Notes: a model not told the origin generated them from the letters alone. A stretch of DNA of 64,000 bases from a virus (IMGVR_UViG_3300042444_000045:1-64000); one strand, 5' to 3'; shown: positions 9,079 to 54,291, numbered from the stretch's first letter. Made by a program: numbers and translations.

Positions 9079-9088
9079 CTCCCTTTTT
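9064..9088. terminator. Bidirectional terminator at the convergence of the replication and virion modules
   Basis: AAAGG-GGAGC-AATA-GCTCC-CTTTTT, with A- and T-tracts on either side, between convergent stops. Confidence 0.75.
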
Positions 9089-12000
9089 ATTTAGATAGAG
9101 TACCTTCAAAGGCTTTGACAGCTTCTTCAGGACTTAGAGTATATCCTGTAATACCCATCAGTTTCAAGAAATATGCCCAGGATTTGTTATCACCCTTTTC
9201 CCATATACCAGTTCTTCTTTGGTACACTGCTTTTTCAGGATCCCAAGATTGAACCAAAAATTGATCTGTAAACTTGATAGCTCTGTCAATAGTAGATGTT
9301 GCTGCAGATGGGGACTTTACAGTTCTATACGCATCACGTATACCTAGAATAGGTAAGTACTGTGTAGTCTCACTCCTCATTCTGATTGCTTGATACAACA
9401 TGAAGTTGTAGCCCCAGTTTTTCTTAAGTTCATCATCATCATCATCTATCATACCTTTTAGTGCCATAACTATTCCTGTAAGTGCTAGGATAATTGTGGC
9501 TTCCGCAATTACTCTTTTAGTCTGAGCTTTTTCAAACGGGGACATGTCTGCCCAGTTCTTTATAAGACTAGTCTTTAGAGTTACTAGGTTCTTAAGATAG
9601 AGATTCCAAAAAGTTTTATAGTAACCCTCTGTTTGTGCACCAAGTTCTTCATCAAAACCTAGATTCTTGAACCTTCTTTTGTAAGCTGGTACTAAGTACT
9701 TTCTATACATGAAAGCAAGTTTACCCAAACTGTACCTTTGAGCTGTAGCTTTATCAAAATCATTATAGATACCATGCATTCTCTTATTAAGAGCATGTAG
9801 TCTATTCATTACATTTTGTCTTTTCTGCTCAGTAAAGTCTGTTTTATTATAAACCTCATCTACACCATATTTTTCATAGGCATCTAGTAATGACATCTCC
9901 TGATTAGATTCATTGTCTATTACCATAGTAGCATCAAGGAGTGCAAACAAGTTTGATACTTGTATCTCATGTTCACCAAAGTGCTGGTTAAAGAACAATG
10001 TGTCTACTCTAAATAGTTTATTGGCTACTGAAGCAGTTACTAGTCTACCAAAGTTATCCATATACTCACCCTGCATGGGATCGTATAGATCAAATAATTT
10101 ACCACCAAGACTATCTGCAGTGAACTTACCAAAGTCTCCTAGAAAACCTGGTATAGATTTCATGTAGTATGATTTACCCCGCATAAGGTTCTTTACACTA
10201 AAGAACTCTGAGGATGCTGCTTCAATTAGTACCTGGATATTACCTTGTATATTATTGGCAACACCCTTCATTATATCAGCTGCAATACTTGTTAAAGCTG
10301 CAAAACCAATTAGACTTCCTGTAAGTTTATTTGCTGATAGACCTAGCACACTTTGTCTAGTATCCATTTCACCATAGACAATCATGTCTATAAAGTCATT
10401 TACTCTCTTAGCTGAATAAGATTCTCCCTCCTTAGTAATATATCTTTCTATACCAAGTTTCTTAGCAAGAGGATTTAATAATGGCTCTCCCTTTACATTG
10501 GTTTCAGCCACATCACGTTCACCTACTATCTTCTTGTATAGTACAACTTCAGAGTGGATATCATTTAGTGCTTTGAAGTTGTTGGACATACCAGCAAACA
10601 TTAGAGTTGATCTCATTAAGTTAAGACTAACATCTTCCGGTTTAATACTCCAGGTATAGTATACAGGAATGAACTTCTCTTTGGTACCGGCAATAGTTGC
10701 TGGACCAAACTGAGTATCACCCTCCATAAAGGTAAACTGTTCTTGAAGACGTGTTTTAATTCCCCTTCTTGGATCATCCATCATTCTCTCACCATTAGTC
10801 TTGTAGATTGCTGGTAAAAGATATCCTGGTTGTTGTGCTTCTGGTAGACCCTCTTGATATGATAGGTAAGTATCTGTTAACCACTTGTGATATTTTCCTT
10901 TAGCGTTTTTAGGCTTACCATTCTCATCATATAATTCTAACCAAGCTTTGTTTAGGAACTTATTACTTGGTTCCGTTAACTCACCCATATAGACTAGTTG
11001 GCCTGTAGCTGGATCTGTATATGCTACACTTGAGTACCACTTATCATACTCTTCTTGTGTAATAATTCTAGCATTAAGTTCTCTCTGCTTACTATTAAGG
11101 ATCTGTTGAATTTCACTAGCTGACTTTGGCTGAGTATTCTCTCTAAACCAATCTCTTCTAGCTGCTTGTCTTATTCTATATGCATCAAGTTCGGGTGGAG
11201 ATGGATTATCAGATAGTACAAATGCTTGTGGTAAATTCTGTCTCTCAGCAAAGAACTTAGACATATCATATTTCTGTACATAGGATACTCTATCTTCATA
11301 CTGAATCTGACCAGCTATTCTTATTACTCTTCCAACGGCATCTCTTTTTGGTATTCTGATTGTCTCATACAAGCCCTTATTGAGTTCAGCAGGATTATCT
11401 CTGTTACCACCTACGGCACTTACATATTCTTCAAATACTTTAGCAGCTTCTTGTTCAAGTTGTATGTTCTTGATTCTGGCATTATCCATTTCTGTCTTTA
11501 CAGCTTTTGCAAAAATTGATAGAACTGGGTCTGCTGCACTAATCATTGCTCCTGTTAAGTATTCAAAGCCTGACATGTCTCCGGATAGCTCACGTAGATA
11601 TCTTACTAGACTCTCCTTAGTTAGATTAAAACCCTTCACCTTACTGAGTCTATCTCGTAGTTTAGTTAGTTCTTTCTCTCTTACTTCATCAGATATCCTA
11701 GTATTAGCTTCTACTCTTGCAATGTCATCTTCAAGAGATTTTACTTCTACATCAAGACCCTCTCTGGCTTCAGACTTGTATGTCATTAACCAGTCAGCAA
11801 TTAATGGTATACCATATTGAGATACCTGTTGCTTAATTTGGTTTCTTACACTAATAGCATAAGTGAGTTTCTGTTGTGGAGATTTAATTCCTGCAGCTTC
11901 TTGTTCCTCCGGAGATAGATCACTAGTAAAATGCTCAAATACATCTTCTTTAGATATCTCATCAAGTAGTTCGTATCTGTTGGCAAAGTCATAAAATGCG

Positions 12001-12455
12001 ATGAGCTGATCTATTGCAGCCTTACCTGACTGCTGATTGATAGACTTTACAAATGATCTGAACTGTTTCTCTGCAATCTCAGCTTTATCATAAACGTCAT
12101 CCACAAAGAGCATAATAGACTGTACACCTTGTACATCACGGATCTGTTCTAGTAGTCTCTTGATTTCATTCTTAGTTCTCTCATAGTTCTGAACTTTTTT
12201 TCTCTGTAGTACAGCAAGCTTAGCTTCTAAGTTTAGAATTACATCATTTACTAGATCTTCAATAGGTGTTGTAGCCTTGTCAGCTTCAGTAACTTTATCT
12301 TCTTCTTCTGCCTCCGGATAATAGTTGAGATCATCACGGTCACCAAAACCCTCTCTATACCATTCTTGTTCAGCTAGTACTTCATTACCATTGTGTTTAG
12401 CCACAAGGTCTTTCCATTCCTGGCTGTTTTTATTTATGCACTTTTTAATTGACAT
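9087..12455 (-). CDS. Large virion cargo/ejection protein (1122 aa)
   Basis: Last gene of the giant-gene block next to the virion RNAP. It is helical/coiled-coil with a hydrophobic segment near the C-terminus (IIILALTGIVMAL-like) and a single Cys at residue 6. Confidence 0.6.
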   Translation of the reverse strand: MSIKKCINKNSQEWKDLVAKHNGNEVLAEQEWYREGFGDRDDLNYYPEAEEEDKVTEADKATTPIEDLVNDVILNLEAKLAVLQRKKVQNYERTKNEIKRLLEQIRDVQGVQSIMLFVDDVYDKAEIAEKQFRSFVKSINQQSGKAAIDQLIAFYDFANRYELLDEISKEDVFEHFTSDLSPEEQEAAGIKSPQQKLTYAISVRNQIKQQVSQYGIPLIADWLMTYKSEAREGLDVEVKSLEDDIARVEANTRISDEVREKELTKLRDRLSKVKGFNLTKESLVRYLRELSGDMSGFEYLTGAMISAADPVLSIFAKAVKTEMDNARIKNIQLEQEAAKVFEEYVSAVGGNRDNPAELNKGLYETIRIPKRDAVGRVIRIAGQIQYEDRVSYVQKYDMSKFFAERQNLPQAFVLSDNPSPPELDAYRIRQAARRDWFRENTQPKSASEIQQILNSKQRELNARIITQEEYDKWYSSVAYTDPATGQLVYMGELTEPSNKFLNKAWLELYDENGKPKNAKGKYHKWLTDTYLSYQEGLPEAQQPGYLLPAIYKTNGERMMDDPRRGIKTRLQEQFTFMEGDTQFGPATIAGTKEKFIPVYYTWSIKPEDVSLNLMRSTLMFAGMSNNFKALNDIHSEVVLYKKIVGERDVAETNVKGEPLLNPLAKKLGIERYITKEGESYSAKRVNDFIDMIVYGEMDTRQSVLGLSANKLTGSLIGFAALTSIAADIMKGVANNIQGNIQVLIEAASSEFFSVKNLMRGKSYYMKSIPGFLGDFGKFTADSLGGKLFDLYDPMQGEYMDNFGRLVTASVANKLFRVDTLFFNQHFGEHEIQVSNLFALLDATMVIDNESNQEMSLLDAYEKYGVDEVYNKTDFTEQKRQNVMNRLHALNKRMHGIYNDFDKATAQRYSLGKLAFMYRKYLVPAYKRRFKNLGFDEELGAQTEGYYKTFWNLYLKNLVTLKTSLIKNWADMSPFEKAQTKRVIAEATIILALTGIVMALKGMIDDDDDELKKNWGYNFMLYQAIRMRSETTQYLPILGIRDAYRTVKSPSAATSTIDRAIKFTDQFLVQSWDPEKAVYQRRTGIWEKGDNKSWAYFLKLMGITGYTLSPEEAVKAFEGTLSK

Positions 12456-12456
12456 C

Positions 12457-15400
12457 TTAACAAGTATATTTTCTAATTATTTCTTCAATCCTTTCAATCT
12501 CAGTCATACTAGTAGCATTACTGATATCTTCCATCATCTGGTAAACATTGTAGCCATCTTCTGCCATCTTGAGATCAAGGCTCATAAATACAATCATATC
12601 ATTTATGTCTTTGATAGCTTGTATTTTTCTTTCTCTTGTAACTTGTACAGTAGGTTCTAGAACACTTTCAACTTGACCTGTCTTAAGATTAATGTTTCTA
12701 AGATACATAGTTTTTCCGTCAGGACTTACAAGATCATATAGATTGTTATCATTTAGTAAGTATCTTCTACCATTAGATGCATTGAACTCCTTAGGGAAAA
12801 CATTATTATTTTCTGCTAGGTATGTATTGAACTCAGTTATTTCTGGGTTGGTCTCAGGTGAAAGTTGTCCTGTTACGGGTGCACTTGGGGCAGCTTCTCT
12901 TACAGCCGTAACGTTATTTACTGGTTCTATCTGGTAGATAAACCTAGATCTCTTACCACTAATTAGTGATGCCGATAGAATAGACCTCTTTTTAAAGTCA
13001 GCAGCATCTTTGTACCCCTCGGCCTTAGCAAACTGATCTAGAGTTCTAGTTACTACCATACCGGTTTCACTATTAGTAATTGTTACTGTACCTGTTTTAG
13101 GTTCTACTGTTGCTTCACCGAGATATGTTACTTTTACTATACCACCATTTGGCATAATGTAGTTACCATTCTCAAGTTTAGCAGTGCGGCCTGTAATAAC
13201 TTTTGTACCATTTATAATTCCATCAATGCTTTCTTGCATCATTGGAATTGACGGTAGTTCCTTGACTACAGGTTCTGTGGTAGATTTACCATTAATAAAA
13301 TCACCAAATTGTTTTAAGTCTTTTGTACTACCAAGAATGTGAATTTGTTCTGGTTCAAAGATTCCATATGATGTAGCCAAAATTGGATCCCTCATATTCT
13401 GATATACTACAGCATCATTACCCTCTTTTATAGCCGTTGCAACTTGTCTTGCTGCTATATATTGGGTAGGATATTTAGTATCTTTATATGTATCAGGGAA
13501 TGGGGAGTTCTCATAATCATGAACAAGGGGATTTTTAATATCAACAAGAACTGGCATATAGTTCTCTATGTATCCCTTCTTCTTTATTTCTTCAGCTCTA
13601 TTAGCTAGTACTTTTTTATCAGCTTCAATTGCAGACTTAAAAAACTCAGTTATTTCTTCTACAGACAGTTCACTAGAAAGGGCACGTTTGGTAGGAGTGT
13701 TTTGTTTAGCATTTCCTGATTGGACAAATAAATATCCTCTATCCTTTTCATAGTATATATTGTACTTACCACTAGAATTACTTGCATTAGTAGAGTTAAA
13801 ATCACCAAATCTAGTTTTGATTGTTGGGTCATTGCTCTTAAACTTATCTACATTTTCTAAGAAAACTGTAAATTGTTCAATTGATTGTTTAGCATTTACT
13901 GCTGAGTTAACAAACCCCGGTACATCCATAGTATCTATTCTTCTATAGATGTTCTTATTAACATCTCTGAGAATGTCAAGTATTTCTGCATTGGTCTTAC
14001 CATCAGCTTTTGCTTTTTTGATTAGATTATCAAAGAATGGAATTGTTTTTAAAAAGTTTACAGCTTCTTGAGCATCACTTGATTTTAATACAATTCTATT
14101 TAGTGCCCCACGAATACCCTCTACATAATTATATCTTCCAAGAAATGAGTAGTTAAGAGCAGTATCAATATTATCTGTAAAGAAAAAAGCATTCTCTGAA
14201 TCAGTATTAAAAGTTTCACCTCTCTTCTTGTCCGTCATTGTACCACTACCTGTATTAGACCCCCTCTTATCTTTAATAAATTCTTCAAAGAACTCATATG
14301 TTCCATGATATAGAATGTCTTTTACAGCACTGCCTGGAAAGATTGTGTTAATGTACTCAGTATATTGTTGTGGAGTACCAATTGCAGCTAGTTCAGGTCT
14401 TAGTCTAAATAATTCTTCTACACCCTGTTTGACACCAGGTTGTTCTTGGGTAGATGTAGGGAGTTTAGCAGCAACAGCTGTTTCCTCAGGATCAAATGAT
14501 GGCTCAACAGGAATTGTTACATTAGCAGGATTACCAATCTGTACAGGAGTAACCAAGAAGTTCTTAAATAACTTACGGTTGTTCTCAGAAGATACTAGTT
14601 TATCAAATATTAGATTAAGAGTCTTCTGGTTCCAGTAGTTTACTTTAAATAAATCTCCGGCATTCTTGGTAGCTGTAATAACTGTTTCTTGCGGTACTAC
14701 TTGTTCTAATCCAAACGGAGTAATTCCATTACCATGTTGGTATACAGCTATCTTTGGAAGGAGACCAAATATGGCACTGATTCTAGCATTTGCATCACCC
14801 TTAACCTTTTGAATTCTTGGGTTACCAAGTGCTCTAATATTAGCAGCATATTGACTCTTAGTACTACCATCTGCCACATCTCTGTCATTTAGAGTTAGGA
14901 GATAACTATCTCTAGAAACTCTAGCTGAAAGTTGTTCAAGTACAGGATACTCAGATCTTAAACCCGGGAACTCATCAACAAGATCAAGTATCATCTTAGT
15001 ATAAGAGTACTCAGAGTTTTTAGTAAGAGCATTTGGATTGTATACGTTCATTAGAGATACCTGATTCAGTTGTAGGTCTTTTAGACCCTGGGTCTCTTGG
15101 TATGCTCTTTCTAGAACGTATCTAATGTATTGCTCTTCTGTAGTAAACGGATCCTCACTAGAGTTAAATGGTTTTAGACCATCTCTGTTTTTATAAGCTG
15201 TACCAGCCTCTGAGTTAGCTAGATAAACTTTTTCCTTGTAGTCTCTCTTAATATTATTAAGATTGATAGTGATGCCTTCATTTGTATAGACAACATCATT
15301 GTTTAGTGCTTTGGAGTTAGTAATCTTTAACTTACGGTATTCTTCTGGTACAGAAATAAGATTACCTTTTGCATCTACAGAATTTGATAGATAGTTCTGA

Positions 15401-18400
15401 TATATAAAAGTTACTATAGCATCTTTATAAGCATCTATAAAGGCTACAACACCATCTGTACCGGTACCAAAGGATGAAAGGTCTCTTGTTGCAATGATCT
15501 CTCTGATAGCTTTATTAGTAATTTCATTGTTGACTAGGTCCATCATTGGAGCAGCAACATCAGTGATAATAGTCTTATCAAAGAGTGAGCTTACAATACT
15601 CTGACTAAATAATCTTCTTCTAGACTCTTGGTCAATCTTACTATCTTCATCTAGTAGATCTCTATTAACTTCTTCTAGGTATACTTGTTGGAAGTTATTA
15701 AAAGTCTTTGTATCCGGTTTCAACAATCTCTTCATTGCAGATAGACCCATAAGTTGCTTTTGGATCTCATAGAAGTGTAAGAACATAGCCATCTCAGATA
15801 TAATCTCTGGATTACTAAGATCATTTACATTCTTCTTACTTTCAATGATGTTCTGCATCATATCTACAGAGAAGTTACCGTCTACTCTTTCAGCCTTACT
15901 TAGAGCAAATCCAGTTGCCTCATAGTATAATTGGTTTCTTAAATCAGGAGCAAAGTATATATCAACTTTTTTTGGACCCCTTGTCTGATACACTCTCATT
16001 ATTTCAAGAGGGTTAATGTTCCCTCTCTGGATTTCTATGGCTAACTGTCTCTTATTGACATTAGTCATAATTGGTTTTGGCTTCTCAGTATAATTTTCTA
16101 CTGGTCTGAACTCAACACTGAATTCTGTGTCAGGTCTTACACCATCCATGATAGCATATAAATACTTTGCAGTATACTTATTTACTACATCTCTAGCGGA
16201 TTGGAATCTAGTAAACTGTGATGCACTTGGTGCTATACCAAGGATTGAACCATAGTCACCACCAATAAGCCTTTGCTGTTCAGCATACTCACGGATCATT
16301 GGTTGTGATACAAAGTATGCTGCATCTTTTACAGGTACACCAGCTTTAATTAAGTACAAGAATGTTGGGGCAATTTCATAATTACCCTGAATGTAGAAGA
16401 TCCACTCATCTTTCTCTACATCTACCCAACCATTCATACCCTGAGAAAATACATCAGCAATTCTATCAATACCATCAGCAGTATCAGTATCTGATATAGA
16501 AATATGGTCCCCAATTTTATTATGACGGACGTTGAGTCTCATATCATAATCAGCCGGGTTCTTAGTGTCTACAACATATCTACCATTTACATATTTAGTT
16601 GCTTTATATGTCAGTGGCATTTTACCACCGGCAGCATCAAACATTGGGCTTAGTTTGTTTTCAATAGCAGCAATACCAAGTACTGCTTTACCAACTAAAT
16701 TTTCCTCATGTTTAGCTAAGTTGTATAGTGGCTCTAATGTAGTAGTAGGGCTAAGTATCTTTTTGTTACCCTTCATGTTAATCTCACCATTCTGTTTGGT
16801 GAACTTATCATAAGTACTAACATCATCCTGCAGTTTATCAGCAAGATCTTTTAGTATATAGGTATCATTAGGTCTAACTAATGGAGCATAGTTTTCAGGT
16901 AGCTCAAGGATAGATCTAATACTATCAATAAATTGATTTTGTGTAGCAAGTTTTTGTTGCTTAATAAAGTTCTTTCTAGCTTTCTTGTCCTTGATCTTAT
17001 TTGCTTCTGCCATGAAGTCTTTATTACTAGCAGGAGCTTTATATAGATTACCATTCTTATCAATGTTAGGGAAGAATGTAGTAAGTTTATCAACGTCAAA
17101 GTCACCACCAGACTTAGCAACAATCTCTGTTGGCAGCATGATTAGGTTACTTGCTGCTGGATCTAAGAACTCATGTACTTCCATGAACTCCATAGAGTTG
17201 AGACCCTGTACAGGAATACGTACAGCAGTAAGAGTAATCTTTTTTCTGTTATCTTCAGTATCCAACCACTTTTCATTCTTGATCATCTCATTGAGTCTTT
17301 GTCTAGTCTCAATAGGCTTACCATCAATATGTTTTAGATTAAGTAAGTTTGCAAAGTCACCCTGCAGTGCAATAGCAACTTTCATTGCATTGGTCTTACC
17401 ATTTTCACCTGGGTGATAGAACGGAAGATTATTAGTTCCTAAAAACTTTTTCCTTTCTGCATCAGTTGGTTTTTCAAATCTTGGTCCACCTGTTACCAAG
17501 CCATTGCTAAATGTGCTGGCTATTTGTACAAGTGGCTCACCTTTAACATACTGTCTTACAAATCTCTTTTCTACAATAGATAATACTGTCTTTTCAATAG
17601 TCTTTCTATCTATGAAGTATGATAGGTCACCCTTAAGTGTTCCATCACTGTTTGTTTGAAGTTGTCTTAGTAAGTGCTCAGGATAGTCTTTTCTTTCTAA
17701 GTTCTCTCTGATTAATTTTAAGAACTTATCAGGTTTGCCTACTAAACGATCACCGTCCTTGTTGTACTCAATCTCATTTTCCAGTTCATATTTGAGTAGT
17801 TCAGTGTAAAAGTCTACAGTGTCTTTATACTCATTTACAATTGGTGCATAGTTCTTATTGATCAAGTCACCTTGTTGATATAGACCACTAGTAATTAGAG
17901 CTCTTAACTGTGTAGAGAATACTGTTTCACCTTTGTACTTACTGTTTACAGAAGCAGCTTCTTTTAAGAATCCGGCATGTATTGTGTTTATAGTAAACTT
18001 AATATCCTCTTTGAGAATAGTTTGAGCAGCATCTTCAAATACTATATCAGCTTTACTACCACTAGGTGCTACGTGACCCACTTTAGAACCGGATTCAAAT
18101 GTAGCATAGTGCACACCCTTTTCCATCATCTGTCTGTGTAGCGAATCCATTTGTGGACCAAATACACCTGGGATAATTGGCATAAGTGCAAACTTGTGCA
18201 TTGCAGTTACAGGAAGTACAGTGTCTTCAACAAAACCAAAGTTCTGTAATTTATACACAGGGAACATCTCAATAATCTCAGATGCTTTTATGTCCTCTCT
18301 TCTTACAATTCTTTGAAACAAATTCTCTTGAGCATCTGACCACTTGTTCTGTAGTTTTTTGTAGAGCCTATATGCATCAAAGGTAATGTACCCCTGACCA

Positions 18401-24400: not shown

Positions 24401-24669
24401 CTTGTAATTTCTCTGAGCTTCTCAATAGGCATGTTTAGTGTTAAGTCCCCACCTAGTTGTGCTTCTACACTACCTATGATATAAGGTATCTGTTGGATAT
24501 ACTGTATTGCTGTATCTCTTCCCTGGGCTTTTTCAAAACCACTGTACATGTAATTTATGTACTGGTTTACATCAAAAGTTTCTCCGGCAGGAGTAGTGAG
24601 CATCTTTTTATAGACAGCATCTAAGAGTTTGATAATATTATCACGACCAAGGGTACAAGTAATTGCCAT
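12457..24669 (-). CDS. Virion-associated RNA polymerase polyprotein (crAss-like), with zincin, ART-like and ASCH-like domains
   Basis: Catalytic DFDVD at 17089-17103, preceded by RIPVQGLNSM. Beta-like motifs ADGQGY, PVYK, HKFA and ESGSKVG. HEAWH at 21946-21960. This matches the phi14:2 gp66-type two-barrel RNAP layout. Confidence 0.88.
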   Translation of the reverse strand: MAITCTLGRDNIIKLLDAVYKKMLTTPAGETFDVNQYINYMYSGFEKAQGRDTAIQYIQQIPYIIGSVEAQLGGDLTLNMPIEKLREITRAFRNADTGLAAIEEYLGLAPLTPEQLAAKANYKANNPVGTTSDPIDPDAEIDEAELKSRTIFSGTGQEFITLDPTKKTKTTVERLDRDKTRIYNTISRIHRTTFQFDTTLGNPVYQGQEITLVPVALNKMPDAQMTKETSDLLVRMNSINKQGTATGNVTLPSEVFMLVVSDKQGNPLYFDEDGNITTKENGKYVYQTLREVRQDGSGKYIVTNMYGAENKLILPGEEARLRMKEQGYSTPIEFKEKTGKTIQEFAKEIEAEQQAEAKQLYDLRQKLIKGEKFILPITGASEGVSNTTIKNLTLNQLESFYAQESNGKTLSDLILGNIQTLDAPAYGFDAGTTVIKLGSGVGRILKLDRSDIQEDLATKIAEVLTSDQLSPTQKFNFYTQFYAKEITDIPNSTRRHQVYFDKDTGVLTFEYYEFTGKQVELSSIKDNPSKTLDLENANLAKSNKDQIFDILMKGKTSASGKYYPAKFDYNQSLINLGTYSDYVNGEFVEKNYIDFLRQQDGQIFLSKEGVPLFNAYIKFSPPAGVLSEITNEQAEEIDTRSEVRKFKDNMVEVILFAEPKSITAEVVEVRETQTQDGIPTYTLDVRIDGQEGVHKFYLSSKAKVGDRIYLEVKDVIDNGFLFKDVVKAYTEVEGRIYDMGSLAERDFKANEPRREPVPVQTVTAERAAEDEAVESVEPFSKTGTEDQAKAGDVNITNPQNTPQPEDSTDISDLIDGFELDRSASLPNGVTAAQIENAIKWWKNSPLAKYIKLFPAANIVNSNVYGKFVASGAKLITDMSLDLDGKMGAILINPTTGGTMVDTYHEAWHVFSQLFLTKAEKTALYNEVRKLKPEYAKLSARQVEEMLAEDFRSYALNPKVIKGQPKRNSIFRRILNFLKSFFKTKPTTADLIRGEELATEGVAGELFQNLYFASKNPKLLNNYTPLISNVALDELNRGIEQVNNNQEDALDDVDSATVIESLDSLLSTVIDTTYEKKGALDAAVSIISNENNKSQFFDFAKKKFLKDIENIQGQLNVKPTVSFNSFETLQNLEDNAIAIIRSSEGDDKYIFLKGQVEDFSNLNLDTKSGERIKGELYKGTIEIIGDYYSHKTIKSKDKDAVDIIIVNSIEEAQAQFDAYKDAEEDSFTDIELFHDRTVDAFEVDYDQAVLLDNLRILQSARDNWEKVIEYFKEKSSFNIMTKKVRIQETDPENDTQDEDAQLDATKAQNFDKGADVNLLEIADKEVVYILKSLFAVTRDSKGKPVYEYNKLGYKKLANYKKVWNAVVRATNSTKDPRQMFKNIQEAARTYPELEQLIKYRLPNPQSIRAEGTVGNPMRSFGIVTSFWSVFSLPRVPYMQLTVFRNQYETFDSKGNTIVTNSETTGVEVTNASTDIGNTIRKFEASFAARLDSAFTRRDSDNNTTLKLDAIVQQFSDKSGEFKSGSEFLFLNAMGFNLDDLGKIKEELSDPNNRKYFGVNYIFDTIRDLNNAQKAGSMTDGARRVLNNFMRNPISTLRAGIDPGVIGLKNSFVFEKGSKQSTQIDRIVNLQNKLGSTASTFSVQNPEKNRVNEHVNDSSLTVITDSINTALQRTDMYKFGSTARHLDPSMNPFAESSLAIRSMFLPEGSQRPGRSISVEMISGTQTVNSIIDPYGNIRDGAVTGSNTTSLDKRGKFIQDMHTFLKTGRIELMRPGSKSSSFGWRIDGGIATNAIGKIDQHLYVDINSLQPNTAGEADIIEGIMIPYLSSELKRINIYNESSEAKNYVGYNREFKNGKTFGQSFNYFDGILTEDTQNEILEKVKSPGTRLQDYLKTDPELAKKIKAEIKGYFTNKTNELYNYLKQAPFIDKTLMDRLKLNNLTTEQKEKTLVKAFMYNYWIHNMETSILFLGDIAQYDHKKQELHKRISGLISNGPRLRTDVDAQRFSEYLGESSYAASENITPIMYKGYANTVIMQEVQRDSIYLDPIRKGLTADYERRYKTRNIPNKEALIKERVQKEVDKYTKGEIKEADGQGYITFDAYRLYKKLQNKWSDAQENLFQRIVRREDIKASEIIEMFPVYKLQNFGFVEDTVLPVTAMHKFALMPIIPGVFGPQMDSLHRQMMEKGVHYATFESGSKVGHVAPSGSKADIVFEDAAQTILKEDIKFTINTIHAGFLKEAASVNSKYKGETVFSTQLRALITSGLYQQGDLINKNYAPIVNEYKDTVDFYTELLKYELENEIEYNKDGDRLVGKPDKFLKLIRENLERKDYPEHLLRQLQTNSDGTLKGDLSYFIDRKTIEKTVLSIVEKRFVRQYVKGEPLVQIASTFSNGLVTGGPRFEKPTDAERKKFLGTNNLPFYHPGENGKTNAMKVAIALQGDFANLLNLKHIDGKPIETRQRLNEMIKNEKWLDTEDNRKKITLTAVRIPVQGLNSMEFMEVHEFLDPAASNLIMLPTEIVAKSGGDFDVDKLTTFFPNIDKNGNLYKAPASNKDFMAEANKIKDKKARKNFIKQQKLATQNQFIDSIRSILELPENYAPLVRPNDTYILKDLADKLQDDVSTYDKFTKQNGEINMKGNKKILSPTTTLEPLYNLAKHEENLVGKAVLGIAAIENKLSPMFDAAGGKMPLTYKATKYVNGRYVVDTKNPADYDMRLNVRHNKIGDHISISDTDTADGIDRIADVFSQGMNGWVDVEKDEWIFYIQGNYEIAPTFLYLIKAGVPVKDAAYFVSQPMIREYAEQQRLIGGDYGSILGIAPSASQFTRFQSARDVVNKYTAKYLYAIMDGVRPDTEFSVEFRPVENYTEKPKPIMTNVNKRQLAIEIQRGNINPLEIMRVYQTRGPKKVDIYFAPDLRNQLYYEATGFALSKAERVDGNFSVDMMQNIIESKKNVNDLSNPEIISEMAMFLHFYEIQKQLMGLSAMKRLLKPDTKTFNNFQQVYLEEVNRDLLDEDSKIDQESRRRLFSQSIVSSLFDKTIITDVAAPMMDLVNNEITNKAIREIIATRDLSSFGTGTDGVVAFIDAYKDAIVTFIYQNYLSNSVDAKGNLISVPEEYRKLKITNSKALNNDVVYTNEGITINLNNIKRDYKEKVYLANSEAGTAYKNRDGLKPFNSSEDPFTTEEQYIRYVLERAYQETQGLKDLQLNQVSLMNVYNPNALTKNSEYSYTKMILDLVDEFPGLRSEYPVLEQLSARVSRDSYLLTLNDRDVADGSTKSQYAANIRALGNPRIQKVKGDANARISAIFGLLPKIAVYQHGNGITPFGLEQVVPQETVITATKNAGDLFKVNYWNQKTLNLIFDKLVSSENNRKLFKNFLVTPVQIGNPANVTIPVEPSFDPEETAVAAKLPTSTQEQPGVKQGVEELFRLRPELAAIGTPQQYTEYINTIFPGSAVKDILYHGTYEFFEEFIKDKRGSNTGSGTMTDKKRGETFNTDSENAFFFTDNIDTALNYSFLGRYNYVEGIRGALNRIVLKSSDAQEAVNFLKTIPFFDNLIKKAKADGKTNAEILDILRDVNKNIYRRIDTMDVPGFVNSAVNAKQSIEQFTVFLENVDKFKSNDPTIKTRFGDFNSTNASNSSGKYNIYYEKDRGYLFVQSGNAKQNTPTKRALSSELSVEEITEFFKSAIEADKKVLANRAEEIKKKGYIENYMPVLVDIKNPLVHDYENSPFPDTYKDTKYPTQYIAARQVATAIKEGNDAVVYQNMRDPILATSYGIFEPEQIHILGSTKDLKQFGDFINGKSTTEPVVKELPSIPMMQESIDGIINGTKVITGRTAKLENGNYIMPNGGIVKVTYLGEATVEPKTGTVTITNSETGMVVTRTLDQFAKAEGYKDAADFKKRSILSASLISGKRSRFIYQIEPVNNVTAVREAAPSAPVTGQLSPETNPEITEFNTYLAENNNVFPKEFNASNGRRYLLNDNNLYDLVSPDGKTMYLRNINLKTGQVESVLEPTVQVTRERKIQAIKDINDMIVFMSLDLKMAEDGYNVYQMMEDISNATSMTEIERIEEIIRKYTC

Positions 24670-24672
24670 TGA

Positions 24673-27600
24673 TTAACAAATTTTTGAATTAAACACATCA
24701 CTTTCTAGATCTTCAATCTTAGCATCTTTGATTCTATCTTCAACATTATTTATTTCTGTTTTAATAACCTCTTGTGCTAGATCAGAACTTTCTTTTAAAA
24801 CTGCTTTTGTATCTTCAGTTTGTTCTACAACTGGTGCCTGTGGTTTAATTGCTGTGCTCATTTGTGTTTGAGAAGTTAATTGATTGAAAGTAATAAAGAT
24901 ACTGCTTTTCCCATTGATCTTGCTAACTTCAACACCTTTACTTGAGATAGATGTAATGGTAATTGGGTCACCTTGAAGTGCCCAGAACATACCGTTATTA
25001 TCTGTCATAGTCTGTGTTACAACTCTGTTAGCATATTGCTCTTTTGGAATGCCGTTCTTTATAATATACTCAATTTCTGCTTTAGGTAAAAGATTAATTG
25101 TAGAATTACTATAACCCATTAGGTTTAATTGTTTTCTTAATTCATCTTGTATGTCAGTAGCAACTTTAATTCCTGTAACAGCCTGCGGACTATTTTGTAC
25201 TTGTTGTGGAGTAGATTGCTGTTCAATAAGAACTGCAGTAGCACCAACAGCATCCTGCGGAGTGATTTCTACACCAGATAGTACATCAATAGTTCTTGTA
25301 CTATTTCCCCCTGCATCATAGTCTAATGCTATTGGTAGTACAGCTAGAGTCTTAGCCTTTAGACCATGCGTATTGTTTAATAAAATTCTATACAATGACA
25401 ACTGTTCTGTATGCTGTTGACGTTTAGATTTACCACCAAATGACTTAGACTCATACTTAACTATGTTTTCACCAGCATATGTTTCAGCAAACTGATTACC
25501 TCTCATTGTTTTGATATCATAGATCCTTACATCACCATTTACATCAAATGTTAATAAGTCTACAGTACCTGCAATACCAAGTTCATCATTGTATAGTACA
25601 ACATTATTAGCTAAAACTATTTCTCCTCTTGCATCAAGAGAGGCTTTAATAGTCTCTAGTCTGGCTTTAAGTTTTTCTATTTCTTCAACTGGGGCAAATT
25701 TATATTTATTTAAGTCTTTGAGCTTACCTGAGAAAAAGTCTCTGATGTACTCATCAATTTCAGTACCAATAATCTGTGATGAAGCAAGAAGCATTTTTTG
25801 ATTAACATCCTTTTCTGAGTAACCAAGATCTGTTAGTCTCTTTCTGTATTCCTCCATGGATTCAGTATCTGACTTAGGATCTTTAATCTCATCTTCTTTA
25901 GTATAACTAGTAACTCGCATGTATTCTTTACCAGTTTTGGTATTTACATACTTGCTACCATCCTCTGTTAGTTTTATAAAGGATGCATTTCTAAGAACTT
26001 CTCGGATAGTACTTCTTACAGAATCAAGTTTTTGTTCTTGTACTGTAAGTGGTCTACCAGCCTTTTCACTAAGAGCTTGATCTAGATCAGCAATATCAGC
26101 AAGAGAGAATGTAGAGATAATAGTTTTTTCTTCTTCTTGTGCAAAAACTTCTTCAACAGTTTGTGCCCTTACTTCAGTAGGAGTTGGACTCTTAATGTCC
26201 CCGCTACTAATTGGTTCTCTAATAATATCTCCAGCAACAGGTTCAAGTAGATCATATAGATATCTAAGTTGATCTTGATATTTTTGAAGAGCTGCTTCCA
26301 ACTCCATCATTCTATTCTGTTCCTGTTCTCTAACCTCATCTATGAACTCTACATTGTCCATAGTAGTGTTGATATCCCTTTCTAGCTGGTTGACCTGTCT
26401 GCTAAGTTCTGCAAATCCCTCTACCTTCATTTTACTGATGTCATCAGTAGCACGAATTAGTTCACCCAGATTAGCAGAAACTTCTTCATATCCGGTATTC
26501 TTTTTAAGTTTAGAAAGTGCAGAGTTTTGTTTTTTCCAGATACCTAGATACTCTTTTAAGTACTCTGTAGATCTTGCAATAGCATTTCTAAGAATCTCAA
26601 TCAGTCTCTGGATTGTACCCATCTTTTTCTCAATCTTCTTGATCTTATTGCGGATATCAGTTTTAGTAAATAGATCAAACTTAGGATCAGCTAATAGGTT
26701 TCTATAGTAGTCAGCCTGTTTTTTGAGATCTCTTCTAATAGCAGCTAGTTGTTCCTGTTGTTGTTTTAGTTCACGAACTCTATTCATGATGTCATTAGCA
26801 ATGGCAAACTCTCTTCTAAGTTGTTGTTTATAGAGACCTGATCTTTCTTTAATCTTACCAGATCTTTTTTTCTGATTAGCTTTGAGAAGTTGTGCTGTAG
26901 TTTTATCAAGTTGCTCTATCTTGTTTATTAGATCTTCAACTTGTATACCAGTTAATTCTACAGTGTTATCAAGTAATTGTTGTAGATATTCCAGTGTATC
27001 AGCTATCTCAGCCTCTTCTTTTTCAATTAGCTTTTTCTTCTCTTCAACTAGATCAATTCTTCTTTGTAGAGCTTGTTCTGCTAGCTTCTTACGTGCAGCA
27101 GTTTCAGCAGCAAGTTGTTCAGTATCAGAAGAAAATTCTTTTTCGGTAGCCTTAACTTCTTTTCCATATGCTTCTACATCAGCAATATATCTTCTCAGAC
27201 GTTTGATATTAAGCTCATCTATAAGTAGATCTTCTTTCTCCTCATCTGTTAGTTCTTTCTGTGATCTAATAGCATACTGTGATTCTAAATCAGCAAGAAT
27301 TTCTTTGGCCTGTTCTAATGTGTACATAGCCATGTCCATCTCCTTACCATTGTAATCAATGATAGGTGCTATAATGTTTATGGCTTGTTCCTCAAGTTTT
27401 CTACCCTGCATCTCTGCATTGTAGTTTTCAATAACTGTTTTAGCCCTTGGGCTTGTTCTTACAAAATCCTCAAACTTATCAAGAAGCTGTTCATCAGTTA
27501 ATTCAGCATAGGCTTCTACCAATGGCACACCATTTTCATCTTTGTTGATATAGTTTCCATTTTCATCTGTTTCTGCTAAGAAGTCATTGAACTCAACTTG

Positions 27601-30600
27601 TAAATCTGTATATAAACCTCTATCTAATTGGTCAAGTGGTGTGTTTACTGTAAATGGTATGAAGTCTTCTGTCTTGACCTGAGGTGTGGATTCTATATCA
27701 TCAATAGCTTTACGGATAGCTTCTTCTCTTTTTTGAGCAAACTTGTTCTTGATCTTCTGTGCTTCAATTACATCAGCAGGAACTCTTTCTACAGTAAAGA
27801 TTTTACCATCTACAATATCATATGAAAGCTGTAGTACATCAATTACCTCACCATTCTTATCATTAAACTTAATTATCTCACCATCTTTATAGACTATCAG
27901 CTCATTTGGTTGTCCATCTACTAAGTAGAATGCAGTAAGAGTATCTCCACTCTGCAATTGATTAGCAACTTCAGATAACTTTACAGTTTTCTTACCAAGC
28001 ATGTCAAGACTACCTCTCTCTTTCCTTTGTTCTTTTTGTGGTAGAGCAGCTAGCTCTTCTTGTTCCTGAACAGCTAGTTGCATTAATTCCATGCCCAATC
28101 TCTCATTGGTATCTTTTCTAGCTTTTGGATTAAGATTTTTTAGTTTAACAGCCTCTAAGAATAGAAGAGCATATTGATCATATTCTGGACTACCTCTTCT
28201 AATAACTACTTTTCTGCCATTATCAAAGAATTCATCCGGGATCTTATTGTTTCTACGGAACTCATAGATATCATCAGCACTAACATAGATATTCTTATCA
28301 GCTAGTTCATTAAGAAGAGCATTGAGTTCTATGTCACTGAGTTCTTGATTTACAAGTTCATCATAGTATTGTTTTCTATTCTGATATGCTTGGGTCATCC
28401 ATGCATAGTTCCTTTCAACATGGTCGAGAAACTCATTTGGATTGTACAGTAAGTTAATGTACTTGTTTAGAGTAGATACCTCTCTACCTAGTCTATAGTT
28501 ATCTAAGATGTATTCAAATGCCTTGTCAGCATTTTTTTCTAAGTACTCATCTTTTCTTACATCAGCAATTGACTTCAGATATTCCTTATATGCAAGTTCT
28601 AAATCTGATTCAGCTCTTGTTGTATTCTGATCATTTTTTTCTTTTATATTGTATCTCTTTTGGAGAATCTCTCTTGTTCTTGCTTCTGCTTCTTCTTCAT
28701 CAAGGACAACACCTTCATCTGATACATTCTTAAACATGCCCTGTTCGCGCATATTAGAGATTGTAGCCTCTAGTTCAGCACTATCGTATCTGTAGTAGTA
28801 CTCTACTTTATCCTGTAGGTCCTGCATAGCAGCAAGAACTCTTTCTTTTTTCTTTAGCTCGGCAGCAGAAACTAAACCCTTACTAGATTCAATTTCAGTT
28901 TTAAGCATACCAATTTCAGAAGTAAGCCTATCTGTATCAAATAGAACCATTAGTTCTGTATCAGACATCTTATTTAGTGGCTTCTCAGATCTAACTGTTG
29001 TAGCCATCTTGTCCATTCTATTCTTATGTCTTCTATGAGTCTGACCTAAGAATATAACATTGTTTCTACTAGTATCCCAGGCTGACAGATATAGAGCAGC
29101 TTTGTTATAAGCTTCTGTACCCTTTTTGTAACCTGCTAGATCTACGGGATCCGGATACCTTTCATTGTTTTCCTTGTAATCTACTTCTATTTCATCTATT
29201 CTTTGTAGAACAGAATCAATCTTAGATAAAGATTTTTTACCAGTTCCCTTTTCAAGTTTAAAGGCATCCTCAAATTCTGCTTCTGTTAAGTTTTTATATG
29301 AGGCAATTTGTTCTTTAAAAGCTCCAATAGAGTTTGTCATCATAGCTGTAATAACAGCAGAAGTAAATGCTCTATCTGAAGCATCAATAGTAAGCTTTCT
29401 AGAACCAGAACCCTTCATCTTAGTTGCATCTTCTTGGATTGCTAGATTTAAGAGCTTCTGATTTATTACATTTATAGGATCTTTAAACAAGTTGTTGTTA
29501 AGTGTAGCAGCAAGTTTCTCACCATAAGCATTTTTACTCTCAATGTACTTCTGGTATTTTTCAGGTTTAAATAATCTATTATAACTCTTGGATACAAATC
29601 CAGGAACCATGTTCATACCACCACCAAAAATACCCATGACAAATCCAGTAGCAAAAGTTTCAAAACCTTTTTCTGTAAATGGATTCTGTTCAGACCATGC
29701 ATCTGAATAGTATGAGTATTTACTTCTCATACCTTCTGTCTGTGCAGCCCTAGCAAATAGGTGGCTCTTTACAGCCTGACTATTATACATGTCTACATAG
29801 TAGTTTTCTGTTGCTTGAGCAATAGTTTCCTGAGCATTTTCCTGAAGACCTTCTGCAACATTTGCTCTAGTATATCTACCAGCAGCACCTAATGTTTTTT
29901 GTAGGGGTGCTTCTTTAAATGCTTTTATACTTTCTTTCCAACTGTTTTGAATATACTTGGCCTCAGCTTGAATAGCTTTACCACCTGCAATTTTAGTTGA
30001 CTCAGCTACAATTCTACCTTCTGCTGTGCGCATTAGATCTGCAGTCTTACCCTCAAGTAATCTACCAAACCCACCTTTTGGTTTAAAGATATTACCAAAA
30101 GTTATGTTGTTTGATAGGTACACAAGACCGGTATTCCACCCAATAGTTTCTGCAGATGCTTCTTTTGACATCTTACGCATCTTGTAATCTTCTTCATCAG
30201 AAGGAGCTCTACCATTCTTGTCCCAGTATTCATTGTAGAGTCTATCATACATGTTATTCTCTACAAGAGCACCTTCAAGTCTACCTTCAGAAAAGGCCGC
30301 ATTTAGGTTTCTAACATCTGCGTAAAAACCACCTGCAGTTTTAGATATTTTAGCTAGACCTGTTAGGTTATCAAACTTACCTATCTTAGATACATTACCG
30401 ATAGCATCAAAAGTATTACTAAGTGGGTTCCAAAATCTACCCGTTGGGGTATTAGCAGCCTTCCAGAAAGATCTAGCTGCTTCTGTATTCTTTAAACTTG
30501 TTAAAGACTTACCAAGTACATTGGCAAATCTATCCATGTAGAAGGCTTGTGAGAAACCTTTTCCTATTCTTGCTAAGTTACTTGCTGTTCTTGTAGCTGC

Positions 30601-31389
30601 AACACCACCAGCAGCACCACCAGTTACTCCTGTTAGTGCACCAAGAACAAGTTCTTCAGCCATAACTTCACCAATAATACCAGCAGTGTATCCAAAGTTC
30701 ATTAATGCATTATTGAAAAATGAACCGACCCCACCTCTAGAAGAGTAACCTATTGATGTAGCTTCTTCATAAGCTCTAGCTTCTTGTAGGTCTCCACCAA
30801 AGTCTCCAGTAATTGCATTAAGCAAACTCTTGGGTCCAGATACAAGACCGAGACCAGCTAGTGGAAGGAAGGAATAGTTGACCATTCTTTGAAAGTCATC
30901 CCAACCTGTAGTACCAGCATTAAAGTTAGATTCATTATCTCTTAGAGGAGTAAAACCAATTTTATCAAATGTTTTTTGACCAAGTGCAGCATATCTATCA
31001 TAGTAGGCATTACCTTTAGAGCTTGAATCATATTGGTAGATTCTAGCATAGGTATTCTTATCTTGGGATGCTTTTATACTACTGTGTATATAATCACCAA
31101 AGCCTGATATGATATCTTTTGTTGAAGCACTCTTTGGTGAACCCGGTCTTCCTGGTGCATTACCAACAACATTTTGTTTTACATTAAGTTGTTCTTGGTT
31201 CAGTTTATCAAACTGTGGTAGAACAGAAGTAAAAGAATCTGGTGCGGGAAAATTTATCTCAGGCATTTGTATTCTATCACCCCCAAAAGGAAGCATAGAC
31301 TGAGGTGTATTAGGAAGATTTAGATCACCATAACCAGCACCTAAATTATCTAGAGGGCTAAAGCCTTCGGTGTTATTTTCAGTAGCCAT
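24673..31389 (-). CDS. Large virion cargo protein with coiled coil and C-terminal PD-(D/E)XK nuclease domain
   Basis: Gly/Ala-rich hydrophobic N-terminal segments, a long heptad region and GIAGTVDLL...IYDIKT...QLSLY at about 25290-25960. It ends with Cys. Confidence 0.7.
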   Translation of the reverse strand: MATENNTEGFSPLDNLGAGYGDLNLPNTPQSMLPFGGDRIQMPEINFPAPDSFTSVLPQFDKLNQEQLNVKQNVVGNAPGRPGSPKSASTKDIISGFGDYIHSSIKASQDKNTYARIYQYDSSSKGNAYYDRYAALGQKTFDKIGFTPLRDNESNFNAGTTGWDDFQRMVNYSFLPLAGLGLVSGPKSLLNAITGDFGGDLQEARAYEEATSIGYSSRGGVGSFFNNALMNFGYTAGIIGEVMAEELVLGALTGVTGGAAGGVAATRTASNLARIGKGFSQAFYMDRFANVLGKSLTSLKNTEAARSFWKAANTPTGRFWNPLSNTFDAIGNVSKIGKFDNLTGLAKISKTAGGFYADVRNLNAAFSEGRLEGALVENNMYDRLYNEYWDKNGRAPSDEEDYKMRKMSKEASAETIGWNTGLVYLSNNITFGNIFKPKGGFGRLLEGKTADLMRTAEGRIVAESTKIAGGKAIQAEAKYIQNSWKESIKAFKEAPLQKTLGAAGRYTRANVAEGLQENAQETIAQATENYYVDMYNSQAVKSHLFARAAQTEGMRSKYSYYSDAWSEQNPFTEKGFETFATGFVMGIFGGGMNMVPGFVSKSYNRLFKPEKYQKYIESKNAYGEKLAATLNNNLFKDPINVINQKLLNLAIQEDATKMKGSGSRKLTIDASDRAFTSAVITAMMTNSIGAFKEQIASYKNLTEAEFEDAFKLEKGTGKKSLSKIDSVLQRIDEIEVDYKENNERYPDPVDLAGYKKGTEAYNKAALYLSAWDTSRNNVIFLGQTHRRHKNRMDKMATTVRSEKPLNKMSDTELMVLFDTDRLTSEIGMLKTEIESSKGLVSAAELKKKERVLAAMQDLQDKVEYYYRYDSAELEATISNMREQGMFKNVSDEGVVLDEEEAEARTREILQKRYNIKEKNDQNTTRAESDLELAYKEYLKSIADVRKDEYLEKNADKAFEYILDNYRLGREVSTLNKYINLLYNPNEFLDHVERNYAWMTQAYQNRKQYYDELVNQELSDIELNALLNELADKNIYVSADDIYEFRRNNKIPDEFFDNGRKVVIRRGSPEYDQYALLFLEAVKLKNLNPKARKDTNERLGMELMQLAVQEQEELAALPQKEQRKERGSLDMLGKKTVKLSEVANQLQSGDTLTAFYLVDGQPNELIVYKDGEIIKFNDKNGEVIDVLQLSYDIVDGKIFTVERVPADVIEAQKIKNKFAQKREEAIRKAIDDIESTPQVKTEDFIPFTVNTPLDQLDRGLYTDLQVEFNDFLAETDENGNYINKDENGVPLVEAYAELTDEQLLDKFEDFVRTSPRAKTVIENYNAEMQGRKLEEQAINIIAPIIDYNGKEMDMAMYTLEQAKEILADLESQYAIRSQKELTDEEKEDLLIDELNIKRLRRYIADVEAYGKEVKATEKEFSSDTEQLAAETAARKKLAEQALQRRIDLVEEKKKLIEKEEAEIADTLEYLQQLLDNTVELTGIQVEDLINKIEQLDKTTAQLLKANQKKRSGKIKERSGLYKQQLRREFAIANDIMNRVRELKQQQEQLAAIRRDLKKQADYYRNLLADPKFDLFTKTDIRNKIKKIEKKMGTIQRLIEILRNAIARSTEYLKEYLGIWKKQNSALSKLKKNTGYEEVSANLGELIRATDDISKMKVEGFAELSRQVNQLERDINTTMDNVEFIDEVREQEQNRMMELEAALQKYQDQLRYLYDLLEPVAGDIIREPISSGDIKSPTPTEVRAQTVEEVFAQEEEKTIISTFSLADIADLDQALSEKAGRPLTVQEQKLDSVRSTIREVLRNASFIKLTEDGSKYVNTKTGKEYMRVTSYTKEDEIKDPKSDTESMEEYRKRLTDLGYSEKDVNQKMLLASSQIIGTEIDEYIRDFFSGKLKDLNKYKFAPVEEIEKLKARLETIKASLDARGEIVLANNVVLYNDELGIAGTVDLLTFDVNGDVRIYDIKTMRGNQFAETYAGENIVKYESKSFGGKSKRQQHTEQLSLYRILLNNTHGLKAKTLAVLPIALDYDAGGNSTRTIDVLSGVEITPQDAVGATAVLIEQQSTPQQVQNSPQAVTGIKVATDIQDELRKQLNLMGYSNSTINLLPKAEIEYIIKNGIPKEQYANRVVTQTMTDNNGMFWALQGDPITITSISSKGVEVSKINGKSSIFITFNQLTSQTQMSTAIKPQAPVVEQTEDTKAVLKESSDLAQEVIKTEINNVEDRIKDAKIEDLESDVFNSKIC

Positions 31390-34405: not shown

Positions 34406-34415
34406 ATGTAATTCT

Positions 34416-34468
34416 TTATATTATAAAAATATCAAAATTTTTTAAGTTTAATAAACTTAAAAAGTTTA
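34416..34468 (-). promoter_or_regulatory. Putative late promoter with upstream palindrome
   Basis: Minus-strand TTTGATATTTTTATAATA plus the palindrome TAAACTT-AAA-AAGTTTA at 34452-34468, the same layout as at 41397-41444. Confidence 0.45.
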
Positions 34469-34471
34469 AGA

Positions 34472-36772: not shown

Positions 36773-36781
36773 AATATAAAG

Positions 36782-41383: not shown

Positions 41384-41396
41384 TATACAGTGTATA

Positions 41397-41445
41397 TACT
41401 AAATATAGTAAATTAAAATTTAAACAGTAAACTTATTAAGTTTAC
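41397..41445 (-). promoter_or_regulatory. Putative late promoter with upstream palindrome
   Basis: Minus-strand TTTACTATATTTAGTA plus the perfect inverted repeat GTAAACTTA-T-TAAGTTTAC at 41427-41445. Confidence 0.5.
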
Positions 41446-54238: not shown

Positions 54239-54245
54239 ACTATAT

Positions 54246-54291
54246 AGATTAATATACTAAAAATTATGCACTTTAGCAAATATACTAAAAA
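54246..54291 (-). promoter_or_regulatory. Putative late promoter, duplicated motif
   Basis: AATATACTAAAAA occurs twice (54251-54263 and 54279-54291), reading TTTTTAGTATATT on the minus strand. Confidence 0.45.

Follow-up and report, generated by a model that had tools for sequence, protein, structure and literature searches.

Cryo-electron microscopy (cryo-EM) of cyanophage A4 reveals, in the accessible text of the report (PNAS 2025, PMC12002296), a disulfide between Cys1715 of gp27 and Cys5 of gp26 in the pre-ejectosome, a bond by which the C-terminal helix of gp27 is held fast in a cleft of gp26, as part of a pentameric ring that surrounds the portal barrel. In crAss-like phages, mass spectrometry identifies gp47, gp50 and gp49 of crAss001 in virions (Bayfield 2023, PMC10172136, as far as the available text goes), and the GenBank record notes report the same for the homologous gp67, gp66 and gp65 of phi14:2. 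Other crAss-like phages encode a fused 'polyprotein' with the same modules, which the available portions of the preprint by Drobysheva et al. (10.1101/2020.03.07.982082) suggest to be cleaved to its components, possibly by a zincin domain. Here, we analyze a stretch of viral DNA of 64,000 nucleotides (nt), IMGVR_UViG_3300042444_000045:1-64000 (hereafter, the window), in which three adjacent genes encode giant homologs of these virion proteins, denoted A, B and C, that together contain four cysteine (Cys) residues, all located at the termini that face each other in gene order.

The three genes are co-directional open reading frames (ORFs) on the minus strand and encode 7430 residues in sum. Protein A (2238 amino acids (aa), 24673..31389) is similar to crAss001 gp47 and phi14:2 gp67; protein B (4070 aa, 12457..24669) is a virion RNA polymerase with extra domains, as indicated by blastp and a DFDVD motif; and protein C (1122 aa, 9087..12455) is an RNA-polymerase-associated protein similar to crAss001 gp49 and phi14:2 gp65. 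A script count yields 4 Cys per 7430 residues. The sole Cys of A is residue 2238, at the C-terminal end (codon TGT, 24676..24678, minus strand, directly followed by TAA); B contains Cys exclusively at residue 5 (TGT, 24655..24657, minus strand, within the N-terminal peptide MAITC) and at the final residue 4070 (TGT, 12460..12462, minus strand, followed by TAA); and the sole Cys of C is residue 6 (TGC, 12438..12440, minus strand, within MSIKKC). The outer ends of the chain, that is, the N-terminus of A and the C-terminus of C, contain no Cys. The DNA at the A/B junction reads ...AAA ATT TGT TAA TCA ATG GCA ATT ACT TGT..., with a stop-to-start gap of 3 nt, and that at the B/C junction reads ...ACT TGT TAA G ATG TCA ATT AAA AAG TGC..., with a gap of 1 nt. 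A preliminary description of this DNA had reported the same four Cys, codon coordinates, spacings and Cys-free outer ends, all of which the computed count reproduces exactly, and had named additional internal Cys as an observation that would speak against its interpretation; counting finds none in the trio. In an AlphaFold2 model of C with a mean predicted local distance difference test (pLDDT) of 83.9, Cys6 is located in the N-terminal tail that precedes the first helix (residues 12-20).

Comparison of the encoded proteins indicates that the window comes from a crAss-like phage and holds its block of cargo and transcription genes. A tblastn search started with C matches 95 phage records, including crAss001 gp49 (E = 1e-50) and phi14:2 g065 (E = 3e-25), and a blastp search started with B identifies phi14:2 gp66 (E = 2e-15) and crAss001 gp50 (E = 1e-12), with a length of 4070 aa in the window compared with 2180-2412 aa in these two homologs. 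At the DNA level, a nucleotide search with the A/B junction region detects no match to GenBank phages. C is also encoded on four IMG/VR contigs, with 75-95% identity, where the B/C junction peptides are unchanged. For A, blastp finds crAss001 gp47 residues 1715-1869 (E = 1e-18); this match covers the PD-(D/E)XK-like nuclease region alone (residues ~1809-2025 of A; PHROG 298 exonuclease, E = 2e-13), and outside that region A is too diverged from crAss001 gp47 for blastp. The polymerase catalytic motif DFDVD occupies residues 2523-2527 of B (17089..17103, minus strand), and D2523, D2525 and D2527 are invariant in alignment A3, which includes 24 sequences. B further contains a zincin-type motif, HEAWH (residues 904-908; 21946..21960, minus strand), in which H904, E905, W907 and H908 are invariant in the same alignment. 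This HExxH domain maps to residues 902-959 of B in the window and is located within A in crAss001 and Carjivirus. The trios crAss001 gp47/gp50/gp49 and phi14:2 gp67/gp66/gp65 are homologous to A/B/C and follow the same terminal-Cys rule; in crAss001, the Cys are residue 2339 near the C-terminus of gp47, residues 5 and 2404 near the two ends of gp50, and residue 5 of gp49, the masses of the three proteins (262.5, 276.9 and 154.5 kDa) add up to about 690 kDa, and the virion mass spectrometry included a reduced and an untreated sample, each of them alkylated. Because A, B and C are homologous to virion proteins of these two phages, their presence in the virion and their delivery are assumed here, and the three proteins are probably packed into the virion and injected.

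B residues 3452-3509 (window 14143-14316) show a weak match to the ART-PolyVal domain PF18760 (E = 1.4e-4), with 23.1 bits, under the curated cut-off of 31.2. The homologs of B (P0246-P0363) carry variable accessory domains, yet almost all of them lack internal Cys; the Pfam families identified are a kinase (PF13671), ART-PolyVal (PF18760), a helicase (PF13604/PF13245), a 2OG-Fe(II) oxygenase (PF13532), NADAR (PF08719) and RNase H (PF00075).

The depletion of Cys and the positions of the four that are present are both far from random expectation. As a baseline, the remaining 25 ORFs of the window with a length of 100 aa or more contain 204 Cys in 9196 aa (2.2%), a rate that would give the trio approximately 165 Cys, compared with the four seen (binomial P(<=4) = 1e-65); when the baseline is restricted to the 10 plus-strand ORFs (0.95% Cys), the binomial P is 2e-25. 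The probability of the four Cys landing one apiece at most 6 residues from the four facing termini is approximately 1e-11.

The same arrangement recurs in the homologs of each protein. A search started with A yields 91 proteins (23-94% identity), all 91 of which have a Cys 0-9 residues from the C-terminus, without any further Cys in 86. The search started with B yields 119 other proteins of 2496-4975 aa; a Cys is present in both the first 10 and the last 10 residues in 110 of these, and 107 of the 110 have no internal Cys in 3000-5000 aa. For C, an exhaustive HMMER search results in 150 representatives of 50% clusters, among which 123 are stand-alone proteins (950-2999 aa); a Cys is found within the first 10 residues in 116 of these, mostly at residues 3-5, and 93 have exactly one Cys. 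In P0007 and P0010, two members of this family with long N-terminal extensions, the Cys is still at residue 5. Cys6 of C is nearly invariant in alignment A1, Cys2238 of A is invariant in A2, and Cys5 and Cys4070 of B are invariant in A3, in alignments with a mean column identity of 21-31%. Judged by these comparisons, the terminal-Cys pattern is a conserved rule and not a product of chance.

The facing Cys pairs follow the breaks between the protein chains. The state of gene fusion and the terminal Cys were compared in 15 genomes (here, a slash denotes a chain break). Both pairs are present in nine genomes with the arrangement A/B/C, namely, the window, phi14:2, crAss001, cr85_1, cr128_1, cr111_1, Dulem virus 41, bajarodcaudo virus 1 and cr116_1; in cr126_1, the B/C pair is present, and gene A lies beyond the fetched locus. 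The genomes with the arrangement A/BC (Carjivirus communis, cr107_1 and cyanophage Lbo-JY46) possess the A/BC pair only, with no Cys at the C-terminus of BC, and those with AB/C (cr1_1 and cr4_1) possess the AB/C pair only, with no Cys at the N-terminus of AB. The outer chain ends carry a Cys in 0 of the 15 genomes. The distance of the terminal Cys from the C-terminus is 0-9 residues, and the Cys of the next protein is found at residues 2-8. The two-protein architectures suggest that the C-terminus of A is paired with the N-terminus of B, and the C-terminus of B with the N-terminus of C. Because the A/B break itself differs between genomes, with the zincin domain being part of A in crAss001 and part of B in the window, the Cys follow the breaks and not the alignment columns.

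Complete fusions extend this relationship. Among the C-family representatives, 14 are giants of 3953-5388 aa, none of which (0 of 14) has a Cys at most 10 residues from either end; 9 of the 14 are entirely Cys-free, and all 14 together contain 12 Cys per 67,387 aa. In 13 of the 14 giants, blastp detects A-type, polymerase and C-type regions in a single chain, with the same modules in the same order as in the trio (A N-terminal region, zincin, polymerase, C module); these fused forms differ from the trio in being one polypeptide that has no terminal Cys and is mostly Cys-free. In particular, blastp against additional A and AB proteins identifies P0050, P0063, P0084, P0098 and P0116 as A-B-C fusions. 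The profile of the A N-terminal region finds P0020 alone among the giants in a --max run (and none in default runs), with the same result for a jackhmmer search started from crAss001 gp47, and the alignment of the junction regions of cr1_1 and cr4_1 to the fused giants yields no usable match. On a tree of the C module, built with FastTree from 138 rows after removal of the Cys column, the fused or stand-alone state changes at least 10 times; among 8 independent pairs on this tree, the N-terminal Cys is lost with fusion in 7, and the reverse occurs in 0 (sign test, p = 0.016). The terminal-Cys pattern is conserved and strictly coupled to the breaks of the chain.

An insert in the polymerase gene provides a comparison with a break of another kind. 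Gene B of bajarodcaudo virus 1 is interrupted inside the catalytic motif, between DFD and VDK, by an insert with an endonuclease gene (locus L008, 14672-15565); the two parts align end-to-end with B of cr85_1, and no Cys pair is present at this point, as would be expected for a spliced RNA and an uninterrupted protein. The gene of cr116_1 carries an insert at the same DFD-VDK site (locus L018, 11571-12410). Both inserts contain an endonuclease-like gene and look like group I introns. The C-terminal Cys of the 2507 aa ORF of cr116_1 was considered as a chain end and rejected, given that it lies within the read-through past this interruption.

The described system closest to this arrangement, cyanophage A4, shares its main features. 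In the A-4L record, gp27 (1717 aa) has its sole Cys at residue 1715 and gp26 (1114 aa) has its sole Cys at residue 5, so that, as in the trio, adjacent co-directional genes encode otherwise Cys-free proteins in which a C-terminal Cys faces a Cys near residue 5, and both proteins are internal and ejected, as is proposed for A, B and C. The differences are that A4 is a phage of 42 kilobases, with one link rather than two and without a virion polymerase in the chain, and that the A4 report presents the bond as a local stabilizer and, in its accessible text, is silent on Cys depletion, fusions, Crassvirales and a polymerase trio (PMC12002296). The A4-type pair is retained in Pf-WMP3 and Arthronema virus TR020, at 23-27% identity; these phages encode a protein of 1495 or 1506 aa in which the sole Cys is penultimate, followed by a protein with Cys5. 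The A4-type junction peptides (..NPCL; M.LNCP..) resemble some of those in crassviruses (..NNPCE; M.CPNK..).

Sequence searches for homology between the two systems detect none within the following scopes. There is no blastp match of A4 gp27 or gp26 to the window, reference or representative proteins at E = 1e-3; the profile hidden Markov models of the A and C families score approximately 0 bits against the A4 proteins; a tblastn search with gp26 against 50,697 phage records finds 20 cyanophage records only; and the A and C profiles, run against the sequences of the PDB, return coiled-coil noise only. A Foldseek search of the PDB with the whole-chain model of C has no match at E of 0.001 or better, and VIA-align (wide) with the same model gives generic helical-bundle rows (Z of at most 10.2, residues ~89-281), with no A4 chain listed.

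By analogy with A4, a disulfide is the best reading of the link. According to the available text on crAss001, inter-subunit disulfides are numerous among the tail and portal-vertex proteins in the virions of this phage, so disulfides do form in crassvirus particles; the same text mentions disulfides in the tail and gp57 and none among the cargo proteins, and the word 'cysteine' is absent from it (PMC10172136). We consider it likely that A, B and C are joined head-to-tail by disulfides into a 7430-residue pseudo-polyprotein that is co-packaged and co-ejected and is equivalent to the fused A-B-C protein. In the virion, the C-terminal Cys of A would form a disulfide with Cys5 of B, and the C-terminal Cys of B would form another one with Cys6 of C, so that the two bonds would produce one chain of a single polarity, like the fused A-B-C of other crassviruses. 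The interior of the chain is Cys-free, probably for a partly unfolded passage through the tail, and the links, 0-9 residues from the ends, would make each joint thin. The reducing cytoplasm of the host would then open the links and release the three proteins. We infer the disulfide nature of the link (by analogy with A4), its formation in the virion, and a function in co-packaging, in ordered ejection or in the two combined.

The scarcity of Cys in the body of the chain has parallels elsewhere. Autotransporter passenger domains show a similar scarcity. The virion RNA polymerase gp50 of phage N4 (3500 aa), as well as N4 gp51 and gp52, contain 0 Cys, and so do gp15 and the first 1302 aa of gp16 of phage T7; T7 gp14 has one, at residue 2. 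Like the trio, these are giant ejected proteins depleted of Cys, which are thought to cross the tail either in an unfolded state or like 'beads on a string' (PMC13434306, available text); they differ from the trio in having no facing terminal Cys pairs, in belonging to unrelated families and, in the case of the N4 polymerase, in being a single chain. Cys-free ejection proteins may be general in podophages. In their accessible text, both the crAss001 (PMC10172136) and the N4 (PMC13434306) papers argue that ejected proteins have to traverse the tail in an at least partly unfolded state, and it is plausible that stray disulfides would block such threading, hence the absence of Cys.

Several observations weigh against the disulfide-joined chain or limit the evidence for it. 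The virion is assembled in the reducing cytoplasm and the gut is anoxic, conditions that bear on when the bond would form. The A and B samples include many close relatives, and the independent weight comes mainly from the 15 genomes, the 50% representatives of the C family and the tree. One terminal Cys is missing in 9 of the 119 B-family proteins, which look like putative cut gene calls. The N-terminal Cys is missing in 7 of the 123 stand-alone C-family proteins; of these, P0041 and P0090 look truncated, with V or L as the first residue, the Cys of P0135 is at residue 22, and P0025, P0080, P0096 and P0151 are exceptions with no such explanation. The remaining giant, P0039 (3953 aa, no Cys), might represent a BC form that lacks the Cys expected for it, given that homology to the A N-terminal region is not detected in it by the profile, jackhmmer or blastp; a search for relatives started with this protein finds none. 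The depletion of internal Cys in orthologs, anticipated in the preliminary description, holds in most of the A and B families and fails in the B proteins of gut Steigviridae and Intestiviridae, which have 1-8 internal Cys, so that it is not absolute. The modelling of the terminal pairs, also envisaged there, was carried out for the A/B pair: a complex prediction for B residues 1-150 with A residues 2139-2238 gives a score of 0.51 (median of three runs), compared with 0.01 for the best of 3 controls, with contact agreement of at least 67% between the runs and a partner pLDDT of at least 57. Of 80 solved complexes, 58 reach the mark applied, as do 2 of 110 mismatched pairs, and scores from this mark up to 0.60 comprise 7 of the 80 solved complexes and both of the passing mismatches, counts that hold only roughly given the custom alignments used; the prediction is a weak pass and weakly supports docking of the A tail on the N-terminal domain of B. 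The available text on the cryo-EM of crAss001 describes no ordered density for gp47, gp49 and gp50 (PMC10172136). Of the claims made beforehand, the conservation of the terminal Cys in orthologs is borne out across more than 300 homologs, and a link of the trio in gene order by facing Cys pairs is borne out as far as this conservation and the loss of the pairs at fusions go, short of the bond itself; of the two kinds of link suggested, disulfide or shared metal site, the disulfide gains support from the A4 structure, by analogy.

The alternative that survives best is that the disulfides stabilize a packed assembly in the capsid, as in the pre-ejectosome ring of A4, rather than an ordered thread that is ejected. 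The A4 bond, which locks the gp27 helix into gp26 in the ring around the portal barrel, is the model for this possibility in the accessible A4 text, and the predicted docking of the A tail on the N-terminal domain of B lends it weak support. On the other hand, the fused A-B-C proteins demonstrate that a continuous head-to-tail chain works for the same modules, the links always connect a C-terminus to an N-terminus with one polarity, the position of the Cys 0-9 residues from the ends suits a thin joint, and the available crAss001 text reports no ordered cargo (PMC10172136). An assembly of this kind in place of the thread appears unlikely, and the two roles do not exclude each other.

Instead of forming a disulfide, the facing Cys might hold the proteins together by jointly binding a metal ion (Zn or Fe) or by a different thiol chemistry. 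Such thiolate-metal sites form readily in the reducing cytoplasm, where virions are assembled, and the tails of A proteins are rich in Asp and Glu ahead of the Cys (DLLDDLDC, ELFNDTTSDC), which could provide extra ligands. This chemistry is nevertheless improbable: the minimal systems (A and BC of Lbo-JY46; gp27 and gp26 of A-4L) hold two Cys in total, there is no conserved His or second Cys near either partner, and, as far as the accessible text of the report goes, the density in the A4 analog is modelled as a disulfide (PMC12002296). A zinc ribbon or Cys4 site was rejected as a separate candidate, given one Cys per terminus and no CxxC in 7430 aa.

Somewhat less probable still is that each terminal Cys acts independently, bonding a third virion component, forming a homodimer or carrying a modification, with the proteins not joined to each other. 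Solitary Cys of this type exist: a 674 aa protein encoded upstream of A in Lbo-JY46 (locus L012, 2653-4677) has a sole Cys5 (MKKKC) and no neighboring protein that ends in Cys, and T7 gp14 has its sole Cys at residue 2. Independent functions fail to account for the numbers, however: there are invariably two terminal Cys for each break, the outer ends are bare in 15 of 15 genomes, the A/BC and AB/C arrangements lose precisely the two facing Cys, and the full fusions lose all of them.

The pattern might also be a side effect of a nucleotide signal between the genes, such as translational coupling or a TGTTAA motif, as the TTGTTAA at both window junctions and the gene gaps of 3 nt and 1 nt might suggest, or it might result from chance in proteins poor in Cys. 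The probability of either is negligible. A DNA or mRNA junction motif is ruled out by five genomes (crAss001, cr85_1, cr128_1, bajarodcaudo and cr116_1) that encode A and B on opposite strands, with the Cys kept in both proteins; the Cys are 0-9 residues from the ends, at variable distances, and use both TGT and TGC; and the chance estimates are 1e-11 and lower.

Three further candidate explanations were dropped. A split intein or trans-splicing is rejected, given that the Cys are too near the termini for intein halves (tens to ~100 residues), and a Pfam search detects no intein domain in A, B or C. A lipoprotein lipobox is rejected because no hydrophobic signal segment is present ahead of Cys5 or Cys6. 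A and B share a reading frame, with only TAA TCA between them (window 24667-24678), so that stop readthrough would produce an A-B fusion; this candidate was dropped as the spacing varies between junctions, and those of the phi14:2 trio consist of a 1-nt overlap and a 2-nt gap.

The chain lies next to a cargo-like block on the minus strand (31379..46304), which is context outside the chain. It includes three giant ORFs with 0 Cys (1008, 1533 and 1620 aa, at 31379-34405, 36782-41383 and 41442-46304, respectively) and, among them, a 766 aa ORF with 10 Cys (34472-36772). The ORFs past the cargo block (46304-61337, minus strand) are Cys-rich, with 0.6-8.2% Cys; for example, the 644 aa product of 56941-58875 (minus strand) contains 53 Cys (8.2%), and that of 59087-59629 contains 5%. 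Thus, the window shows a sharp divide between the Cys-free cargo and the Cys-rich ORFs beyond 46304. Small thioredoxin-like proteins are found in the replication and early gene blocks of several crassviruses, namely, gp39 and gp37 of Carjivirus, a 'TRX family protein' of bajarodcaudo, a 'thiol-disulfide isomerase and thioredoxin' of cr128_1 and a 'thioredoxin domain' protein of cr111_1; Pfam detects no such protein in the 10 plus-strand ORFs with which the window begins.

Full-text literature searches find no description of the terminal-Cys rule in crassvirus cargo and turn up only the A4 and crAss001 papers as related work; neither 'cysteine' nor 'disulfide' occurs in the available text of the Drobysheva preprint, Yutin 2021 and the N4 paper (PMC13434306), and the abbreviation 'Cys' is likewise missing from the preprint. 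The preliminary description had known of no precedent; this has to be amended in that a disulfide between a C-terminal Cys and Cys5 is in print for A4 (PMC12002296), and it stands, as far as the accessible text of that paper goes, for Crassvirales, the trio and the fusion rule. A broader formulation, which we offer tentatively and rate at somewhat less than an even chance, is a 'cysteine code' of podophages, under which threaded cargo would be purged of Cys and every chain break would be stapled C-terminus to N-terminus, so that fission and fusion become interchangeable; reduction might also serve as the release trigger that switches on the virion RNA polymerase, and Crassvirales and A4-like cyanophages might share the code by common descent or convergence.

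Among the phages of the human gut, crassviruses are the most abundant. The rule of one Cys pair per break offers a concrete and cheaply testable approach to the way in which they pack and inject approximately 0.7-0.9 megadalton of protein, including the polymerase that starts the infection. If true, the disulfide-joined chain would explain why some lineages have a single protein of 5000 aa and others have three, and would add a redox-triggered release step. The rule also allows annotators to tell real protein breaks from introns or sequencing artefacts in divergent genes, and the chain would extend the single disulfide of A4 to a whole order of phages and to a set of linked proteins with an enzyme among them.

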